A stretch of DNA of 64,000 bases from a virus. Lineage: Duplodnaviria > Heunggongvirae > Uroviricota > Caudoviricetes. The translations under genes and the position numbers were made by a program. Where the stretch lies: IMG/VR virus record IMGVR_UViG_3300044991_001838, positions 1 through 64,000 of that record. One strand, written 5' to 3'. Below the pieces are notes generated by a model. The model was not told where the DNA came from, did not search any database, and saw nothing but the letters and a program-made list of their open reading frames with translations. Shown piece after piece: positions 3,669 to 36,499 of the stretch (its first letter is position 1; every line of letters begins with the position of its first letter).

Positions 3669-3910
3669 AGTATTCCTGCCTCCTCTCTCCACATTTCTTC
3701 CATATGGTTTCTTGACGCGTTGTAGTTTCCGTAGTCGCCCCAATAATCCAATAGGGACTCAAACGCCAATTTAAGTTTATTATATTTTTGTTCGGATTCA
3801 TTTATACCAAAGACATAAGATTCTGTCATTGCGTCAATAACAGAATCTTTATCTAAGAATGAATTATGTACGATTTTTGATTCGTAAATTTCTTCTAATT
3901 TATTTTTCAT
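3665..3910 (-). CDS. hypothetical protein
   Basis: 81-aa ORF, ATGA overlap with RNA ligase gene. Confidence 0.45.
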   Translation of the reverse strand: MKNKLEEIYESKIVHNSFLDKDSVIDAMTESYVFGINESEQKYNKLKLAFESLLDYWGDYGNYNASRNHMEEMWREEAGIL

Positions 3911-4989
3911 GGTTCAATTTCTTTTTGCCAAAACGGTTTACTATATTGTGGTTTAATCAATTTCCAAATAATCTCATCATATGGTTTTTTATCCCACATG
4001 GCAAACATTATTGGTCGTAATACTTCTTGTTGTTTTAATACAAACTCCGCAAATTCTTTTTTTGTTGGTTCAGGGTCCACATCACCATATTTTCCATAAC
4101 GGAATCCATCGTGAAGTTTACCAGCTCTTTCAGATATTTGAAAAAACCCATATCTTAAATCTCTAATGGTATTTTTAACCCATTTATCAAATTCATCAGG
4201 GACTTTATCTAATAGTTCAGAGACATCTTTACCATCTTTTAGATATTCCCATATGTCAACATTTGAGAATCCAGTTAAGATTCTATGTAAACGAACATAT
4301 TCTTCCCCTTTTATTTTCATACGAAATCCGTTTCTAAAACGAATAACATAACCTTCGCGGTTTTGAGTTATTTGAGATTTAAGTATGTCGTAATCGGTTA
4401 CATCATCGTATTTTTTAACGGTTGGTAAACCACTTACTTCATTGATGGATAACATTGAAGTATAATCTAATTCTTTACCTGAGACATTACTTATCATACA
4501 TAATACAACCAATTCTTCATCATCACCATAATCACAAACAATACGATTTTCAGGGTAAATAATCTCTACAACGGTAGTATAACCTTTTGGTAAAACTTCA
4601 ACATTGTATTTTTCATTTAATATCTTAGTCCCTCTAATTGATTGGTCAGAAATAAACGAACCTTTACTTGCCAAAATCCAATTTCCTCTAAACCAAAATA
4701 AAATACCTAAAGAACCATCTAATTTTTCATATACTTCAAAAGTTTCTTCGGGGATGTCTTTAAAGGTTAATTCTTCGTAGTTGAAAAACTTATTAAATGA
4801 TTTTGCAACAACATTACCTTCATTATCCAAGATAAGCCCTCGGCAAATTTTAGTAACACTATCCCAGTTATTCTCATACTGACAAGTACGAGAATAATTG
4901 TATATTGAAATAGGAAGGGTTGGGTGGTCATTTTTAACCACCAACCCTCTTTCTATGTAATCGTTTAATATGTTTATATCTACGGTCAT
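3907..4989 (-). CDS. rnlA: RNA ligase 1 (T4 RnlA-like)
   Basis: YNYSRTCQYENNWDSVTKICRGLILD, KxDGS motif I (EKLDGSLG), EGYVIRF...KIKGEEYVRLH resemble T4 Rnl1 blocks. Confidence 0.75.
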   Translation of the reverse strand: MTVDINILNDYIERGLVVKNDHPTLPISIYNYSRTCQYENNWDSVTKICRGLILDNEGNVVAKSFNKFFNYEELTFKDIPEETFEVYEKLDGSLGILFWFRGNWILASKGSFISDQSIRGTKILNEKYNVEVLPKGYTTVVEIIYPENRIVCDYGDDEELVVLCMISNVSGKELDYTSMLSINEVSGLPTVKKYDDVTDYDILKSQITQNREGYVIRFRNGFRMKIKGEEYVRLHRILTGFSNVDIWEYLKDGKDVSELLDKVPDEFDKWVKNTIRDLRYGFFQISERAGKLHDGFRYGKYGDVDPEPTKKEFAEFVLKQQEVLRPIMFAMWDKKPYDEIIWKLIKPQYSKPFWQKEIEP

Positions 4990-15558: not shown

Positions 15559-15586
15559 AAGAAGGGTTAAACACCCTTCTTTTTTG
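15559..15586. terminator. bidirectional terminator between convergent genes
   Basis: A-run, GAAGGGT-loop-ACCCTTC, T-run; overlaps clpP stop. Confidence 0.6.
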
Positions 15587-16247
15587 TTGTAACAACTTCA
15601 TCAATAATCCCGTATTCAAGTGCTTCATCCGCAGTTAACCACAAATCACGAGTAGCATCCAAAGTAACTTGTTCCTCAGTTTTACCACAATAAGAACCTA
15701 ACAAATCAAAAAGAATTTTATTTGTTTTTTCCCATTCCCTCATATTGATACGAGCATCTTGGATATTACCTCCTGCACCACCTGAAGATTGGTGTAACAT
15801 GGTTTTTGAGAATCTCAATGAACTTCTTTTACCTTTAGTTCCAGCCCCCAGCAATACGGACCCCATAGATGCCGCCATACCTGTGTTAATTGTTCTAATA
15901 TCACAAGAAATGTAATCCATAACATCTACCATTGAAAGTCCTGACTTAACACTTCCACCAGGAGAGTCGATATGCATCGTAATGTCCAATTTATCTGATG
16001 AATCTAAGAACATTAACTGAGCTTGGACTATTGTTGACATGTGGTCATTAACAGGTCCAGCAACCCATAAAATTCGGTCTCTCATTAATCTTGAAAAGAT
16101 ATCCATTTGAGTTACTCTCATTTCTCTTTCTTCCAAAATGTATGGAGTCATCGAATTCTCAATTTGAGAATTAAAATTATGTAAATCCAAAGATGGTTTA
16201 CCTAAATGTTTTACATAATAATTTTTAAAATCTTCGCCTATATTCAT
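15567..16247 (-). CDS. clpP: ATP-dependent Clp protease proteolytic subunit ClpP
   Basis: DSPGGSV, catalytic Ser (GMAASMGSVLL), His (MLHQS) and Asp (TRDLWLTADEA) in ClpP order; very close match to the E. coli ClpP remembered. Confidence 0.85.
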   Translation of the reverse strand: MNIGEDFKNYYVKHLGKPSLDLHNFNSQIENSMTPYILEEREMRVTQMDIFSRLMRDRILWVAGPVNDHMSTIVQAQLMFLDSSDKLDITMHIDSPGGSVKSGLSMVDVMDYISCDIRTINTGMAASMGSVLLGAGTKGKRSSLRFSKTMLHQSSGGAGGNIQDARINMREWEKTNKILFDLLGSYCGKTEEQVTLDATRDLWLTADEALEYGIIDEVVTTKKKGV

Positions 16248-18087: not shown

Positions 18088-18648
18088 ATGTTAATAATGA
18101 GTAAATACTTCGAAAAAATAATAGAATTAAGAAATCAGGGTAAAACCTATAAAGAAATTTGTAAAGAATTACATTGTGCAATTTCAACAGTATCATATCA
18201 CTGTAAACTCAATAAAATGGGTGGTCATAGTGATAGATTGACAGATGAACAAAAATTAGAATTACAAAAACTTTATGATGAAATTGGTTCTGTTAAAAAA
18301 ATTGCAAAATTAAAAGGACATGCAATTAACACTGTTTTAAAATATGTTGTAACAACAAATAAAAATAAAACAGTTTCAAAAACTGAAGCAGTTATTGAAT
18401 GGAGAAAACGAACAAAACAAAAATTAATTGACTATAAGGGTGGTGAATGTGAATTATGTGGATATAAAAAATGTAACAGAGCTTTACAATTTCATCATCT
18501 CAATCCTGAAGAAAAAGACTTTTCAATTTCAGGAAAAAGTGTTAGTTTTGAAAAACTAAAAGACGAGGTAGACAAATGTATATTAGTATGTTCTAATTGT
18601 CATTCTGAAATACACGACGGTTTAGTTGAATTATTACAAGTGGGGTAG
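18088..18648 (+). CDS. HNH homing endonuclease with N-terminal HTH
   Basis: CELCGY...LQFHHLNPEEK...CILVCSNCHSEIH HNH; inserted between tRNA genes. Confidence 0.75.
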   Translation: MLIMSKYFEKIIELRNQGKTYKEICKELHCAISTVSYHCKLNKMGGHSDRLTDEQKLELQKLYDEIGSVKKIAKLKGHAINTVLKYVVTTNKNKTVSKTEAVIEWRKRTKQKLIDYKGGECELCGYKKCNRALQFHHLNPEEKDFSISGKSVSFEKLKDEVDKCILVCSNCHSEIHDGLVELLQVG

Positions 18649-20971: not shown

Positions 20972-21052
20972 ATCGAGGTGGTGAAATGGTAGACACGAGG
21001 GGCTTAAGACTCCTTGCCATAAGGCGTGAGGGTTCGACTCCCTCTCTCGATA
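20972..21052 (+). tRNA. tRNA-Leu (UAA), class II
   Basis: Acceptor ATCGAGG/TCTCGAT, disc A, 3-bp D-stem, anticodon arm AGGGG-CTTAAGA-CTCCT, 12-nt variable arm, T-arm GAGGG-TTCGACT-CCCTC. Confidence 0.7.
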
Positions 21053-21120
21053 CAAAATTTAAAATTATGAAAAAGGTATTTGATAATCTTTGAGGTCTGC
21101 TAAACAACAGACTCAAGATT

Positions 21121-21309
21121 ATGAGTGTGAATACAAACAGAATGAAATTGAAGAAGGCAACTTGTTCAAAAGATTACAGATTGATTTGGTTAAAGTTTGA
21201 ATACCCTTCTTATTGGGATGAGGGTGTTCATTACAGAAAAGGACAATTTTCTCACAAATACAGAGAACATAAAACTTGGAAGTATAACCGAAAAACTCAG
21301 TGGAAGTAA
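21121..21309 (+). CDS. hypothetical basic small protein
   Basis: 62-aa ORF between tRNA genes. Confidence 0.3.
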   Translation: MSVNTNRMKLKKATCSKDYRLIWLKFEYPSYWDEGVHYRKGQFSHKYREHKTWKYNRKTQWK

Positions 21310-21417
21310 AATGTGTTGTTCCTGTGAGATAGGAATGAAATAGTCGGGTGAGATTATAAATTTTGAAAAGATTTATGTCTATATTTGCACAACACGAGGA
21401 GTTCTCAACCTCAAAAT

Positions 21418-21507
21418 AGTTAGGTGGCGGAATTGGTAGACGCTTTAAGGTACTTTATCATTGCTGAAGTTTAAATATCCTCACAGGTTCGAGTCCTGTC
21501 CTGACTA
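21418..21507 (+). tRNA. Leu-type class II tRNA-like gene with aberrant, extended anticodon region
   Basis: 5' half AGTTAGG-TG-GCGGAATTGGTAGACGC and 3' half ACAGG-TTCGAGT-CCTGT-CCTGACT-A match the Leu tRNA frame (E. coli tRNA-Leu has GGTGGCGGAATTGGTAGACGC), but 39 nt between D- and T-arms give no 5-bp stem plus 7-nt loop; the region folds as TTTAA-GGT-ACTT-(11-nt loop)-AAGT-TTAAA. Confidence 0.4.
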
Positions 21508-21646
21508 CTAAATTCAATTAAAGACAAGACCCTGACATATGTTTATGGTGCGTCCCGATGTGTCTAAGCTAGAAGTACAATAGCACAAATCACATTGACA
21601 ACAGTTATCGGAGTGGAAATGGAAGTCCACAATTGAATTTTAAAAT

Positions 21647-21726
21647 AGTCGGGTGGCGGAATTGGATAGACGCGGCCCCGTTGAGGGGTTTAACCGGAAT
21701 TACAGGTTCGAGTCCTGTCCTGACTA
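21647..21726 (+). tRNA. Leu-type tRNA-like gene with 5-nt anticodon loop (probable pseudo- or non-decoding tRNA)
   Basis: Same conserved 5' and 3' halves as 21418-21507; middle GGCCCC-GTTGA-GGGGTT forms a 4-6 bp stem with 5-nt loop. Confidence 0.4.
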
Positions 21727-21944
21727 CGATTGAGATAGAGATACTCAATAGATTTGGCATCGTTACTTAAACAATGATGTAGCTGGTACTCCAAACGGTT
21801 TTACAGAGGGAGTCGTCGGAAAAACGGCAAGAGAACCATCTTGACCTCCGAGTATATGGTTGACTTTTAAGCGGTAAGACGCGATGGGTTTTGAATAGGA
21901 AAACTGTAGATATCTACACCAAAATAATCTCATTGGTGGAAAAT

Positions 21945-22018
21945 GGTTCGGTAGCTCAGCTGGATAGAGCACAAATCTTCTAAATTTGGGGTCATAGGTT
22001 CGAATCCTATCCGAATCA
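21945..22018 (+). tRNA. tRNA-Arg (UCU)
   Basis: Acceptor GGTTCGG/CCGAATC, D-arm GCTC-AGCTGGATA-GAGC, anticodon arm CAAAT-CTTCTAA-ATTTG, T-arm ATAGG-TTCGAAT-CCTAT. Confidence 0.8.
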
Positions 22019-22190: not shown

Positions 22191-22376
22191 CAAAAAAAAA
22201 TAATATTTGACAAATTGAAGATTTTGACTATCTTTGATATAATTATAGAAACAATGAAAACTACAATACAACATATGGTCTTTAGTAAACAACAAATAGT
22301 TTGTTGGTATGAGCGTATGCTGCTATGTAGTTCGGATGTAATCGTAGGATAATAATATAAATTTATATCATATCAG

Positions 22377-22412
22377 ACCCCGAACTTTTAATTAAGGTTC
22401 GGGGTTTTTTTA
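22377..22412 (+). terminator. rho-independent terminator
   Basis: GACCCCGAAC-loop-GTTCGGGG then T7. Confidence 0.7.
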
Positions 22413-22446
22413 TTCTATAATCTTTTGCTCTTTGAAATATTGATTG

Positions 22447-22839: not shown

Positions 22840-23243
22840 CGGAGTCCCGAATTAACGGGAAACCCCCACTCCCATATGGCAGCCAGTCCATTAACCTGGT
22901 GAAGTGGGGTTGTTAGTCGACTGTGTAATGAGGGAAGGTCCCAAACCCCCAAGACCAATAGTCACAGACACTTGTGTTGACTATGGAGTTGTAAGGTTGC
23001 CTTGTGCGGGTTCGAGTCCCGTGTCGACTACACGAGTCGAGTAGTATACGACTAGTTTGCTCCCGAACGATGAGAAGTGGTTTTACAACCATGGGGACCT
23101 GAGCCGATTACTTGAGTCTAAGTCGGTTGGTTAGTGTACCATTAACAGGAGTAAGTTAACACACAAGTTCTAACCCCTCACGTAAGTGGGTTGCCGCTGA
23201 AATTCGGTATTGGGGACAGTCAGAAATGATTGAACGAAAAAAA
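22840..23243 (+). ncRNA. candidate structured stable RNA(s) within tRNA island (tRNA-like 3' terminus)
   Basis: About 400 nt without ORFs, markedly more GC-rich than flanks; ends with T-arm GCGGG-TTCGAGT-CCCGT plus acceptor GTCGACT-A whose complement AGTCGAC lies about 110 nt upstream; multiple local hairpins. Confidence 0.35.
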
Positions 23244-30072: not shown

Positions 30073-30264
30073 TTATATTTTATCAAAGTGTTTATTGTTT
30101 AATTCCTCAATAGAAATTTGATTATTTTTCCATTCTTTCCAAACTTCAAAATCTTTTAATTCTGTTAAAGTATCTTCATGAACCAATAGAAATCCTTCAG
30201 GTGCAATACCTTTTAATTTACCCATTGGTCCTCTTTCCTCAATAATTTTTTTTATATCAATCAT
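30073..30264 (-). CDS. hypothetical protein
   Basis: 63-aa ORF coupled to upstream gene. Confidence 0.4.
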   Translation of the reverse strand: MIDIKKIIEERGPMGKLKGIAPEGFLLVHEDTLTELKDFEVWKEWKNNQISIEELNNKHFDKI

Positions 30265-30958
30265 TATTAGTTAAATATTCCAATAATTTTTCTTTAACAC
30301 CAGATTGTTTGATTCCTTCATTTTCTCTTGGTGTATGAACAAAGTTAGATAATCCCCATACTTGTTCATAACCATAAGAATCTTTCCCTCCTAACTGTAA
30401 ATCGTCAATACAAGCCCAATGTGTGATTTCGGGATGGTCTGTTAGATATTGTCTAACCTCAATACATCTTTGTTGTTCATGCATTGTACTTCGTCTCCAT
30501 ACAAACTCATCAGGTTTATCACAACCGATGTATCGTTTGGTGAATGCTATTGGTGCCTTTGAGATTCCTTTTGACAGGTAATATTCACCAATTTCTTCCA
30601 ATGTTGCGTGTAATCTCCAATCAGAAGAAACAACAAGTTCAGCACCTGTTAATTCTAAGACATCATTTAATACTTTAACGGCTTTCTTATCAAAATCATC
30701 AAATCGTACTTCAACGGGTGCTACAGTGTCGCTAGTTGCTTCAGGATTAAGTTTCTTATACTTCTTCCATTTTTTGGCTCGACCACCCCAATTATTGGAG
30801 AGACAGATTACCCCGTCATTATCCAAAAATATTACCTTATTTGTTTTCATTTTATTTAATAATTTAATTGATTCAAATCTAATAGCGTCAGTTAATTCTT
30901 GGCATTCCCAGCACCAATCATTATTATCTATCCCAATATGCTTATAACACTTCAACAT
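30257..30958 (-). CDS. HAD-like hydrolase (nucleotidase/phosphatase-like) with N-terminal Cys pair
   Basis: VIFLDNDGVI DxDGV motif I. Confidence 0.5.
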   Translation of the reverse strand: MLKCYKHIGIDNNDWCWECQELTDAIRFESIKLLNKMKTNKVIFLDNDGVICLSNNWGGRAKKWKKYKKLNPEATSDTVAPVEVRFDDFDKKAVKVLNDVLELTGAELVVSSDWRLHATLEEIGEYYLSKGISKAPIAFTKRYIGCDKPDEFVWRRSTMHEQQRCIEVRQYLTDHPEITHWACIDDLQLGGKDSYGYEQVWGLSNFVHTPRENEGIKQSGVKEKLLEYLTNND

Positions 30959-31292: not shown

Positions 31293-31299
31293 CTTTTTG

Positions 31300-31770
31300 G
31301 TGGAGATGTCGGCTTCGAAGCCGAGTGTTGTTCACCCTAATTGTTCAGGACTACACGTTTAGGATAACATTAGTTCTCAATGTTCCAAAATATCAGGTCT
31401 GATGTATGTGAGAAACCTACCTGCAAACAACTTGGTCTTAGAGTTATTTTAAACGAGCTCTAACCTGTCACCCGTATACTGAACTTCTGTTGCTAGGTTG
31501 AATGTTCTAACCGACCCCTTGTTGTTCCCTGAACTATGCAGTAACAACAGCTTCTTCTCTAGTCAAACCTAAAGCAGAAAGCTTAGCAAAAGTATTGCCA
31601 ATTGAATTTTACCATCACAGATTTAAGTCATAGATGATGTTTGACTACGTGCCCCAAATAAGTAGTAATGCCAGTCAATTCCATTTCATCCCCTTATTTT
31701 AACACTACAAAGATAGAAATAAATATGTAGATTCCAAACAGAAAAGGTATTTATATTAAAAATAGTTTTT
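31300..31770. ncRNA. GC-rich ORF-free segment, candidate ncRNA
   Basis: About 470 nt with no ORF of 60 aa or more apart from an edge overlap; perfect hairpin GTCGGCTTCGAAGCCGAG near its start; GC clearly above genome background. Confidence 0.25.
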
Positions 31771-34486: not shown

Positions 34487-36499
34487 TTATCTACCTTTTT
34501 TCTGAATTTTAACCTCATCATTATCTACCTTGATAACATAAGATTTACCTTCAATCATTTTACCAAGAAGAACTTCTTCTGATAATAAATCCTCAACCTT
34601 ATCTTGAATTGCTCTTTTCAAAGGTCTTGCCCCGTATAATTCATCAAATCCAATTTTGGATAGGTAATCAACCAATGTTGAATCATAAGTTACTTTGTAC
34701 TTCATATCACTAAGACGAACAGTTAATTTTTTTAACTCAATCTCTGTGATTTTTTTGATATCATCAATAGTCAAAGAGTTAAATACGATAGTATCGTCAA
34801 TACGGTTAATAAATTCAGGTGAGAAAAAGTTTTTCATCTCTTTCATCAATACTTGTTTCTTTGCCTCTTCATTTGAATAAGGGTTATTAGAAAATCCAAT
34901 ACCTGTACCAAAATCTTGTAATTTCTTAACACCCAAATTTGAAGTTAGGATAATCAAAGTATTTTTAAAATTAATCTTACGACCTAAACTATCAGTCACA
35001 TGACCATCATCCAAGATTTGAAGTAAAACTGTAAACACATCTTTGTGTGCTTTTTCTACCTCATCAAATAAGATAACAGAGTAAGGTCTGTTCTTAACTT
35101 TTTCAGTTAATAATCCACCTTCTTCATAACCAACATATCCTGGAGGTGCTCCAACCAATTTAGAAATACTGTGTTTCTCTTGGTACTCAGACATATCCAC
35201 ACGAATAAGAGAATCCTCAGAGCCAAACATTTCTTTAGCTAATTGTTTGGCCAAGTGAGTTTTACCAACACCTGTTGACCCTAAGAACACAAATGAACCT
35301 ATTGGACGATTTGGGTCTTTGATACCCAAACGGTTTCTTTTAATAGATTTTGCAATTTTAATAACCGCTGCGTCCTGACCAATCACTTTACCTATCAACT
35401 CTTTATCCAAGTTTAATAAAGCCTTAGTATCATCAACATTCATTTTGCTTACAGGAATCTTAACCATATTAGAAACCACATCATAAACATCTTCCAAATT
35501 AACTTTTTGTTTATTTTCTGACATAGACTCTTCAAACTTAAGTTTTTCAGATTCCAATTTGGCCAAAACTTTTTTCTCTTTGTCCCTTAATTGGGCCGCC
35601 TGTTCGTAGTTTTGTTTTTTAACAACATCAATTTTTTGTTGTTTAATCTCCGAAGCATCCTTTTTTAATTTCTCAATTATTTCAGGAACCTTAAGCTCGG
35701 TTTGCATACGAGCACCAACCTCATCCAAGATATCAAATGCTTTATCAGGAAATTCTCTATCTGTGATATATCTATCCGCCAATTTAACACAAGCTTCAAT
35801 AACCTCATCGTTATAAATGACTTTATGAAATGACTCATACTTGTCACGAACATTTTTAAGGATTTCAATTGTCTCAACAACAGATGATGGTTCAACAATT
35901 ACTTTTTGGAATCTTCTTTCCAATGCTCCGTCTTTCTCAATATTCTTACGGAACTCATCAAGGGTAGTTGCACCAATACATTGAAGTTCACCACGAGATA
36001 ATGCGGGTTTGAAAATGTTTGAACCATCCATTGACCCTGAAGAATTACCAGAACCTACTAATGTGTGAATCTCATCAATAAACACAATAATGTTTGGGTT
36101 ATCACGAAGTTCTTCAATAATCACTTTCATTCTTTCTTCAAATTGACCACGATACTTTGTACCTGCAACAACTGAAGTTAAATCTAAGTTTACAATTCTT
36201 TTATCAACCAAGTTTCTCGGACATTCTCCGGTAACAATTTTAATTGCCAATCCCTCAACCAAAGCGGTTTTACCACAACCAGGTTCTCCAATGATAATAG
36301 GGTTATTTTTCTTTCTACGAGATAAGATTTGTGCAATTCTTAAAATCTCTTTGTCACGACCAATTACGGGGTCTAATTTACCTTCCTCAGCAAGTCTATT
36401 CAAATCTCTACTAAAGTTATCTAAAACAGGTGTACTGCTTTCTGATTGAGATTGTTTTTTACTCATTGTTTTGTCGTCGTCATCCATTAAGTCGTTCAT
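34487..36499 (-). CDS. clpC: Clp/Hsp100 AAA+ unfoldase, ClpC/ClpA-like, lacking N-domain, with ClpP-docking IGF loop
   Basis: D1 Walker A GEPGCGKT and B IVFIDEIH; linker with UVR-like motif YEQAAQLRD; D2 Walker A GSTGVGKT and B ILFDEVEKAH; GTGIGFSNNP IGF loop; C-terminal GARPLKRAIQ. Confidence 0.85.
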   Translation of the reverse strand: MNDLMDDDDKTMSKKQSQSESSTPVLDNFSRDLNRLAEEGKLDPVIGRDKEILRIAQILSRRKKNNPIIIGEPGCGKTALVEGLAIKIVTGECPRNLVDKRIVNLDLTSVVAGTKYRGQFEERMKVIIEELRDNPNIIVFIDEIHTLVGSGNSSGSMDGSNIFKPALSRGELQCIGATTLDEFRKNIEKDGALERRFQKVIVEPSSVVETIEILKNVRDKYESFHKVIYNDEVIEACVKLADRYITDREFPDKAFDILDEVGARMQTELKVPEIIEKLKKDASEIKQQKIDVVKKQNYEQAAQLRDKEKKVLAKLESEKLKFEESMSENKQKVNLEDVYDVVSNMVKIPVSKMNVDDTKALLNLDKELIGKVIGQDAAVIKIAKSIKRNRLGIKDPNRPIGSFVFLGSTGVGKTHLAKQLAKEMFGSEDSLIRVDMSEYQEKHSISKLVGAPPGYVGYEEGGLLTEKVKNRPYSVILFDEVEKAHKDVFTVLLQILDDGHVTDSLGRKINFKNTLIILTSNLGVKKLQDFGTGIGFSNNPYSNEEAKKQVLMKEMKNFFSPEFINRIDDTIVFNSLTIDDIKKITEIELKKLTVRLSDMKYKVTYDSTLVDYLSKIGFDELYGARPLKRAIQDKVEDLLSEEVLLGKMIEGKSYVIKVDNDEVKIQKKGR

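Follow-up and report, generated by a model that had tools for sequence, protein, structure and literature searches.

Introduction

RNAs that use the tRNA fold without decoding are already known in several forms. In transfer-messenger RNA (tmRNA), the ends form an acceptor stem and a T arm, a functional insert lies between them, and there is no anticodon. YrlA and the other bacterial Y RNAs, which are linked to RNA repair and quality-control contexts, are modular, combining a tRNA-like module with another structured module. The t-elements of plant mitochondria and mascRNA/MALAT1 are tRNA-like folds that punctuate a polycistronic transcript. Allo-tRNAs share one aminoacylation framework among many lower halves and are found on mobile elements and in phages (PMC5389517). 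In an engineered tRNA scaffold (Ponchon and Dardel; used in PMC3753655), the anticodon arm is replaced by an arbitrary structured RNA, and the chimera is processed and stabilised like a tRNA. The subject of this work is a pair of tRNA-like elements, E1 and E2, encoded on the plus strand of a 64,000 nucleotide (nt) stretch of tailed-phage DNA (positions 1 to 64,000 of IMG/VR record IMGVR_UViG_3300044991_001838; the whole stretch is hereafter referred to as the window). Each consists of an upper half of tRNA-Leu type (the chassis) that holds an unrelated insert (the cargo, or payload), and both belong to a large family with the same construction.

Each of the systems above resembles the two elements in part. 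With a type II tRNA-Leu they share A73, A14, A15-U48, G18G19, the T loop, the 7/5 acceptor/T geometry and tRNA-type flanks, but they have neither an anticodon arm nor a regular variable arm, the lower half being taken up by unrelated inserts; moreover, their acceptor (A1-U72, AGUCAGG) is phage-specific, unlike that of bacterial tRNA-Leu. Unlike tmRNA, they lack G3:U70 (position 3:70 is U-A), pseudoknots and a tag open reading frame, and their D arm is intact; their inserts are short and of hundreds of kinds (39 nt in E1, 28 nt in E2), and no Rfam tmRNA match falls at either site. A YrlA RNA begins and ends in its Ro-binding stem, with the tRNA-like part inside, whereas here the termini form the acceptor stem. 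Rfam gives no YrlA match in 21050-21950 and only sub-threshold matches, over ordinary tRNAs, elsewhere; a scan of window proteins revealed no rsr gene. The punctuation by t-elements and mascRNA fits the succession of E2, a structured RNA (DS-218, described below) and a tRNA-Arg, and the T4 tRNA-cluster transcript also yields the stable species I and II RNAs (PMC2330249), but these systems have no conserved variable payload and no arrays of differently loaded copies. Allo-tRNAs retain an anticodon loop of normal form and are presumed to decode (PMC5389517), whereas the present family mostly lacks an anticodon loop. The engineered scaffold shares their anatomy in principle but, unlike the elements, is man-made. 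To our knowledge, a natural, evolving counterpart of it with hundreds of payloads has not been described.

We found no description of the family in Rfam 15, GenBank phage annotation or the searchable literature (subscription-only and very recent work lay outside reach); the closest publication catalogues candidate RNAs from IMG/VR and refers to tRNA-like motifs in generic terms (PMC10690425). While tRNA-like non-coding RNAs are a known kind, there is a substantial chance that a modular payload system is categorically new.

Results

E1 and E2 combine a tRNA-Leu upper half with a non-canonical lower half

E1 occupies positions 21418-21507 (plus strand, 90 nt) and E2 positions 21647-21726 (plus strand, 80 nt). 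Both have the basic parts of a cloverleaf other than the anticodon arm: (i) a 7-bp acceptor stem (AGTTAGG/CCTGACT at 21418-21424 / 21500-21506 in E1, where TG follows before the D arm; AGTCGGG/CCTGACT at 21647-21653 / 21719-21725 in E2), (ii) a D arm (GCGGAATTGGTAGACGC at 21427-21443 in E1; GCGGAATTGGATAGACGC, with one A more, at 21656-21673 in E2), (iii) a T arm with a 5-bp stem and a 7-nt loop (ACAGG-TTCGAGT-CCTGT, identical in the two, at 21483-21499 and 21702-21718), and (iv) A73, at 21507 and 21726. U8 is present in both. The 3' 25-mers of E1 and E2 are identical, and the 5' acceptor strands differ twice (C4->T and A5->G), with pairing kept via G-U wobble. The D-arm region aligns closely with canonical tRNA-Leu genes, both the phage's own and those of a related phage; the D arm also matches that of E. 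coli tRNA-Leu.

In place of the anticodon and variable arms, E1 carries a 39-nt cargo (TTTAAGGTACTTTATCATTGCTGAAGTTTAAATATCCTC, 21444-21482) drawn as an AU-rich bulged hairpin, and E2 a 28-nt cargo (21674-21701) made up of a GGCCCC-GTTGA-GGGGTT hairpin followed by TAACCGGAATT. Neither contains a canonical anticodon arm (5-bp stem, 7-nt loop, U33, purine 37). Aligned to the Rfam tRNA model, E1 shows a 4-5 bp anticodon-region stem with a 22-nt 'loop', and E2 a 5-bp stem with a 5-nt loop; in its minimum free energy structure, E2 folds into a cloverleaf whose stem at this place has 6 bp and whose loop has 5 nt. Thus an original prediction, made from the sequence of the window before any comparison, is borne out: it had described a pair of Leu-framed tRNA-like genes at these positions, with Leu-type acceptor, D and T arms, A73 and non-decoding anticodon regions, one with a 22-nt insertion and the other with a 5-nt loop. 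Two details required correction. The E1 insertion is real, but 'extended hairpin' overstates its fold (-1.8 kcal/mol, z = +0.67, where single-sequence thermodynamic z-scores of E1 and E2 are uninformative), and the pair has a third, more divergent relative, E3, at 22915-23030.

The two elements score 37.5 bits (E1) and 35.6 bits (E2) against the Rfam tRNA model, passing its gathering threshold of 29 bits weakly. ARAGORN does not call E1, and calls E2 as tRNA-Gln(ttg) by forcing a 7-nt loop, in a register that puts G in place of U at position 33, makes C32:G38 pairable and leaves out nucleotide 26. Covariance-model scoring, which had been proposed along with the original prediction, gave a clear result: the family model, R1, assigns 77 bits to each of E1 and E2 (E about 2e-17) versus at most 45 bits to the 21 canonical tRNAs of the window. 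The match of E1 and E2 to the family is far beyond chance.

The chassis defines a large family under selection at the RNA level

The constant halves of E1 and E2 are found again in IMG/VR, on at least 230 contigs. There, the exact 25-nt 3' half is present in at least 119 IMG/VR stretches and a 17-nt 5' anchor in at least 120, the contigs being largely different. Of 185,579 species genomes, only two contain the 3' half, on short contigs of metagenome-assembled genomes (Flavobacterium and Amoebophilaceae). When 50,697 GenBank phages were searched by BLAST, the whole locus gave no match at default settings, and a scaffold-only query matched a single record, from an uncultured phage, in which the scaffold is not annotated.

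Related loci were fetched for comparison (labelled L followed by a number), and 351 distinct elements of 55-230 nt were extracted from them. The chassis of the family consists of a 7-bp acceptor AGUYRGG/CCUGACU, U8, a Leu-type D arm with A14, A15 and G18G19, usually U48, the T arm ACAGG-UUCGARU-CCUGU, and A73. A member has this chassis with a non-canonical insert between the D and T stems, as do E1 and E2. The comparison was decisive: canonical Leu tRNAs at this place in related phages would have spoken against non-decoding elements, and the opposite was found, the relatives carrying the same scaffold with other non-canonical inserts.

Covariation within the scaffold was measured on 139 covariance-model hits, the low-scoring end of which includes a few canonical tRNAs. 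Overall, 99.2% of stem cells are paired, and 14 of the 15 pairs change on both sides; none of 500 shuffles scored as high, and slid controls are 30-42% paired. These results show that the scaffold is under RNA-level selection. The elements collected through the 5' anchor display real variation in the 3' half, including the T-stem variants GCAGG/CCTGC, ACTGG/CCAGT and GTAGG/CCTAC.

Members can occur in arrays, with eight copies in L054, seven in L129 and eight in L098. The L054 copies are differently loaded and lie beside a complete 26-tRNA set that includes its own Leu-TAA and Leu-TAG; a need for decoding cannot, therefore, explain the elements. In about half of the family loci there is no other tRNA nearby, and elements are co-oriented with the neighbouring genes. 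No conserved neighbouring protein was found (the best cluster is present in 13 of 119 loci), which argues against a dedicated adjacent partner enzyme or integrase.

The third element of the window, E3 (22915-23030, plus strand), scores 31.9 bits with R1 and is missed by both ARAGORN and Rfam. It has the acceptor AGTCGAC/GTCGACT, the T arm GCGGG-TTCGAGT-CCCGT, A73 and a conserved body of ~80 nt without a Leu-type D arm. Homologues of E3 are present in L114, L050 and L110, with compensatory changes in the acceptor and T stems, and the E3 fold has z = -2.0. The acceptor of the L050 and L110 homologues is GTCAGG/CCTGAC, linking E3 to the main chassis family.

Some members have further insertions within the chassis itself. 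In L138, L146, L178 and L213, an extra 60-90 nt with a strong hairpin (e.g. GAAGGAGGTAGAAATGCCTCCTTC) lies inside the CCTGACT strand; this could be a small mobile insertion, or a terminator, targeting constant sequence. A second insertion site is in the D loop, where hairpins of 20-45 nt lie between GGAA and GGTAGA, independent of cargo type (L034, L095, L040, L045, L232, L019, L021, L068 and L078).

Other classes of repeated or variable DNA were considered and rejected. A CRISPR-like array does not accommodate the irregular spacing and the folded tRNAs that make up the units; targets of a diversity-generating retroelement do not accommodate variation in length and by unrelated sequence; and a host tRNA or attachment site is absent from host genomes (185,579 species genomes).

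Cargos are diverse, and individual cargo types are conserved

The cargo, defined as the sequence between the D stem and the T stem, ranges from 11 to ~150 nt. Clustered by cargo similarity, the 351 elements form 270 groups, and 223 of these are singletons. When ARAGORN was applied to 126 elements, 87 were rejected and the rest were given scattered or impossible anticodons. A k-mer search for a motif common to the cargos returned none, giving weak enrichments only (e.g. GTTGAG, AAGGT). The cargos do, as a set, fold better than expected: for 169 unrelated cargos compared with dinucleotide shuffles, the mean folding z is -0.64 (p = 9e-15). Their GC content is 40%, versus ~32% for the genome.

Conservation is seen within cargo types. 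In one type, represented by seven sequences, an 8-bp helix has five pairs changed on both sides and is adjoined by an invariant single-stranded GGTGGTATAAAT. In another, a 9-bp hairpin is preserved through several paired substitutions. The E2 cargo occurs in at least five unrelated upstream contexts (L004/L091, L042/L096, L080/L265, L114, L275 and L048), and the changes it has undergone affect the loop only (GTTGA/GTCGA/ATCGA) or give a U-G pair; it has stayed nearly unchanged while the adjoining DS-218 RNA diverged by 10-23% in the same lineages. Among relatives, the ARAGORN 'anticodon' of the E2 type is UUG, UCG or none, and never a Leu anticodon; changes in the loop turn an ARAGORN 'Gln' into an 'Arg', which argues against decoding.

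Within IMG/VR, an exact search for the E1 cargo gave no match, and a degenerate pattern only six chance matches in unrelated DNA. One exact metagenome scan was likewise negative; a second found L285 and L286, two metagenome contigs in which 36 of the 39 nt are conserved. The D arms and acceptor 3' strands of L285 and L286 differ from those of E1, the D arms more so than the cargo, and the flanks are unrelated. Together, the conservation, structure and covariation of cargo types show that they are functional, not drifting.

Comparison of cargos with both strands of the 2.1 Mb of related loci gave few matches, and these are other family members with diverged scaffolds, or relics. Cargo-like sequence outside an intact scaffold, or beside a relic, was observed at L066 1008-1032 and L178 4807-4824 (matching the L060 and L084 cargos), a hint that payload modules may also be present, or be mobile, independently of the chassis.

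Cargos are replaced at fixed slots

Comparison of closely related loci reveals that cargos differ where their surroundings do not. L114 is ~99% identical to the window around E1, yet has E2-type cargo in the E1 slot; the same 139-nt spacer follows, and then directly the tRNA-Arg, with no element in the E2 slot. L044 and L098 share the hairpin region upstream of E1 and have other cargos in the E1 slot, and L098, in which the spacer is kept, has yet another cargo in the E2 slot. L275 contains two successive elements with E2-type cargo. The slot 5' of DS-218 holds at least seven different cargos among 11 distinct sequences. The breakpoints of cargo replacement fall within the constant halves; these halves thus behave as homology arms. 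Relics of scaffold ends are found in the window (a 5' end, AGTCGGGTG, at 21342-21350 with nothing after it), in L178 and in L066.

In T4, the endonuclease SegB cuts a T-arm motif of tRNA genes and drives gene conversion in the tRNA region (PMC2330249). By analogy, cargo exchange may proceed through a homing-endonuclease mechanism. A candidate enzyme is encoded inside the tRNA cluster of the window, where an HTH-HNH endonuclease gene (18088-18648, plus strand) could promote mosaicism of the tRNA region.

A comparable difference was observed in a true tRNA. The tRNA-Arg(TCT) at 21945-22018 and that of L114 (5096-5169), in contexts ~99% identical, are near-identical except for the anticodon stem, which has paired changes (CAAATC..TTTGG in the window, ACGCAC..GCGTA in L114). 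From these sequences, it looks like lower-half swapping.

Flanks and identity nucleotides are those of a tRNA

Across the family, the nucleotide at position -1 is U in 88% of members, and C74, present in 98%, leads into an A-rich stretch. All but one of the canonical tRNAs of the window share this N73|C trailer. With such a tRNA-like leader and trailer, the elements look like normal substrates of tRNA maturation, to which CCA would be added post-transcriptionally. A putative promoter lies 30 nt upstream of E1: TATATTTG (21380-21387, plus strand) matches the Bacteroidota -7 promoter motif TAnnTTTG. This motif is found 4-12 nt upstream of a minority of members (8.2%, versus a background of 4.4%).

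The nucleotides by which leucyl-tRNA synthetase (LeuRS) recognises its tRNA are largely retained. A73 is found in 95% of the family (under a search pattern that allowed only A or G at position 73), A14A15 in 83% and U48 in 83%, and G18G19 is kept. The full set (A73, A14, A15-U48, G18G19) is present in E2; E1 has C48 instead of U48. In E. coli, the LeuRS determinants are A73, A15-U48 and G18G19, and not the anticodon or variable arm, and a tRNA-Leu lacking both of those arms is still charged (PMC9976931). Given that the nucleotides needed by the E. coli enzyme are retained, leucylation of the elements is plausible by analogy.

The elements adjoin a conserved spacer and a conserved structured RNA

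Between E1 and E2 lies a 139-nt spacer (21508-21646, plus strand) with a conserved hairpin, GTGGA..TCCAC. The spacer is 98.6% identical in L114 and 86% identical in L098, and the hairpin shows a compensatory change (GTGGG..CCCAT). The spacer is probably co-transcribed with its neighbours and released by their tRNA-type processing, which may make it a further small RNA.

DS-218, a conserved structured RNA of ~218 nt (21727-21944, plus strand), starts right after A73 of E2 and ends at the 5' end of tRNA-Arg. Homologues with 77-90% identity are present in 19 fetched loci, in 10 distinct sequences (a 16-mer gave 49 loci, of which only ~20 were confirmed by BLAST). DS-218 is always 3' of a family element and 5' of a tRNA, and it ends at the tRNA 5' end in 11 of 11 distinct sequences. 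It contains a few covarying pairs (CACCAA..TTGGTG versus CCCCAA..TTGGGG) and an invariant CCUCC. Both placements, namely the abutment of the E2 3' end on DS-218 and the bracketing of the spacer by E1 and E2, are as expected of processing signals and are conserved in relatives. Partial matches to the 3' part of DS-218 were also observed in L050, L027 and L079.

Genomic setting of the elements

The window is an AT-rich segment (~32% GC) of a large uncultured tailed phage, with genes for a terminase, a portal protein and a major head protein. No cultured phage has a terminase more than 30% identical to this one, and Flavobacterium myoviruses are among the closest named relatives. The host is probably a member of the Bacteroidota, to which (i) a window tRNA 93% identical to a Flavobacterium phage tRNA, (ii) the scaffold matches in Flavobacterium and Amoebophilaceae, and (iii) the presence of TAnnTTTG promoter motifs all point.

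The 21 canonical tRNA genes form a one-directional cluster at 17.9-27.4 kb and include, according to ARAGORN, the phage's own Leu-TAA, Leu-TAG, Gln-TTG, Arg-TCT and Arg-ACG. In the gap between tRNA-Leu(tag) and tRNA-Glu, a sub-threshold Rfam match to Pseudomon-1/ErsA (22317-22420, plus strand; 30.9 bits, E = 0.006) is probably due to chance, but a further structured RNA may lie in this gap. A tmRNA, too, is encoded by phages of this group: a tmRNA-like gene in the window (31298-31693, minus strand) scores 47.9 bits in Rfam versus a threshold of 47 and is not called by ARAGORN, and a clear tmRNA in L193 (5724-6218; 68.5 bits) lies beside chassis-family elements.

Together, four genes on the minus strand provide this one phage with a toolkit for RNA repair and proteolysis: an Rnl1-type RNA ligase (3907-4989), a protein with the HAD domain of 'Swiss Army Knife' RNA repair proteins (30257-30958), ClpP (15567-16247) and a Lon-like ATP-dependent protease (34487-36499). 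Because the phage encodes the ligase and the RNA-repair HAD protein, conflict over tRNA and RNA integrity is a plausible and reasonable setting for the elements, as context rather than as evidence.

Discussion

The reading we prefer, and on which the sequence comparisons leave us evenly divided, is that E1 and E2 (and, more distantly, E3) belong to a large, phage-restricted and unannotated family of non-decoding chassis RNAs, descended from a type II tRNA-Leu, that present exchangeable structured payloads and are matured like tRNAs. The elements would be transcribed with the tRNA cluster, where a Bacteroidota-type promoter motif precedes E1; RNase P would cut the 5' end, and the 3' end would be trimmed and completed to CCA, as in a tRNA. 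The L-shaped upper half would give maturation, stability and possibly leucylation, and the cargo hairpins would be the working part, which binds, mimics or sponges host or phage factors. New combinations would arise by recombination, with the 25-27-nt constant halves as homology arms, possibly with help from homing endonucleases that cut tRNA genes. A broader proposal is that freshwater Bacteroidota phages operate a natural 'RNA display', in which one tRNA-Leu chassis carries hundreds of payloads in arrays, exchanged as cassettes, that mimic or sponge host RNAs or RNA-binding defence and regulatory proteins. We offer this proposal tentatively and with more doubt than belief; a counter-defence role for the payloads is only a guess.

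Several observations weigh against a payload-presenting family. Minimal members of 55-63 nt have almost no cargo and no anticodon arm, showing that a chassis can be maintained on its own. Nor are the members sharply set apart from decoding tRNAs: elements in L166 (13031-13101), L107 and L025 combine the same acceptor and T arm with a D arm of type I and an anticodon arm that looks canonical (Lys-UUU or Thr-UGU), and score up to 66 bits in Rfam, such that the chassis may also carry working tRNAs. Since most elements were collected by exact-match anchors, scaffold conservation is overstated in the raw lists. As for the payloads, E1's own cargo folds weakly, no antisense targets of cargos were found on either strand of the 2.1 Mb of related loci, and no Rfam family matches any cargo, DS-218 or the spacer at permissive thresholds in the window and the array-rich loci.

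The most serious competitor supposes that the constant upper half does the work and that the cargo merely tunes stability or evades recognition. The elements would then be decoys or sponges for a host factor directed at the upper half or the 3' end of tRNAs, either to attack or to sense them (such as 3'-end-modifying or acceptor-cleaving defence toxins); alternatively, they would titrate out LeuRS, RNase P or the CCA enzyme. It is true that the chassis is far more conserved than the cargo, that the minimal members lack cargo, that arrays of up to eight copies suggest a dosage effect, that LeuRS determinants are retained and that, with an Rnl1-type ligase and an RNA-repair HAD protein on board, phage tRNAs are probably under attack. 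An irrelevant cargo, however, would not predict cargo types that are conserved across unrelated contexts with compensatory changes, cargos more structured than shuffles, or arrays that hold different cargos rather than repeats of one, and we consider this explanation unlikely, if worth keeping in view. The particular decoy suggested by the original prediction, directed against anticodon nucleases of the PrrC/RloC type, finds no support in the shape of the cargos, the inserts being unlike anticodon stem-loops and of 270 unrelated types; a decoy role of some other kind is a live rival. The elements may also be precursors of tRNA fragments, as that prediction had proposed. A different emphasis is placed by the idea that the elements are processing signals, at which RNase P and a 3' endonuclease release the neighbouring RNAs (the spacer RNA, DS-218, mRNAs). 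Here the tRNA-like leader and trailer signals, the abutment of E2's A73 on DS-218, the constant end of DS-218 at a tRNA, the conserved spacer flanked by E1 and E2, the loci without other nearby tRNAs and the co-orientation with neighbouring genes all fall into place, and an upper half alone would suffice. Conserved, covarying cargos and dense arrays with short, non-conserved gaps are left unexplained, however; punctuation is probably a side function, and is improbable as the whole function.

That the family is a phenomenon of DNA, its constant halves being selfish recombination or homing sites in phage tRNA regions and its RNA functionless, we regard as decidedly improbable. Replacement of cargo at fixed slots with breakpoints inside the constant halves, the relics of scaffold ends (window 21342-21350, L178, L066), the HNH endonuclease gene within the cluster and the T4 SegB precedent (PMC2330249) would all suit it, but the compensatory and wobble-preserving changes in all three stems, the retention of U8, A14, A15 and G18G19 and the tRNA-type leader and trailer point to selection on a folded RNA. 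Very little probability attaches to the elements being unusual but decoding tRNAs, E1 split or intron-bearing and E2 a tRNA-Gln or tRNA-Arg. ARAGORN's Gln(ttg) call for E2, the few members with canonical-looking Lys or Thr arms and a phage RNA ligase that could seal a cut loop lend themselves to this idea. Against them, the forced loop of E2 has G33 or A33 and its 'anticodon' shifts from UUG to UCG between close relatives, while the window already has Gln-TTG, Arg-TCT and Arg-ACG. Removal of E1's 22 nt joins TTTAA directly to TTAAA and leaves no loop, and splicing at the canonical 37/38 position gives the loop GGUACUU, without U33. An intron-containing tRNA, as the original prediction had also suggested, is contradicted by inserts of 11 to ~150 nt, too short for group I introns, without a group I core, and by members that have no anticodon arm at all; no Rfam intron family matches E1 or E2 at E <= 10, and no shared insert motif was found (the bulge-helix-bulge motif was not searched for explicitly). 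Lastly, low tRNA scores and non-canonical anticodon regions are what decaying tRNA-Leu pseudogenes or assembly artefacts would display, but hundreds of independent contigs keep every scaffold pair, and the cargos of E1 and E2 recur nearly unchanged in other assemblies. This last reading is effectively refuted by the conservation data.

A family of chassis RNAs with exchangeable payloads would have consequences for how phage genomes are read. Standard tools miss the elements or mislabel them as tRNA-Gln, tRNA-Arg, tRNA-Cys and so on, and such mislabelling inflates and distorts phage tRNA repertoires and the codon-usage arguments built on them. With hundreds of elements on one chassis and at least 270 payload types, the family would be among the largest unexplored classes of phage non-coding RNA. 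As a natural counterpart of the engineered tRNA scaffold, it would offer a direct experimental route to asking which structured RNAs phages deploy during infection. With the LeuRS determinants retained, one may also ask if RNAs that do not decode become aminoacylated in the infected cell. The use of tRNA halves as portable recombination arms would explain the mosaicism of phage tRNA regions. If true, 'RNA display' would represent, at the level of RNA, a counterpart to an integron or an anti-defence gene island.

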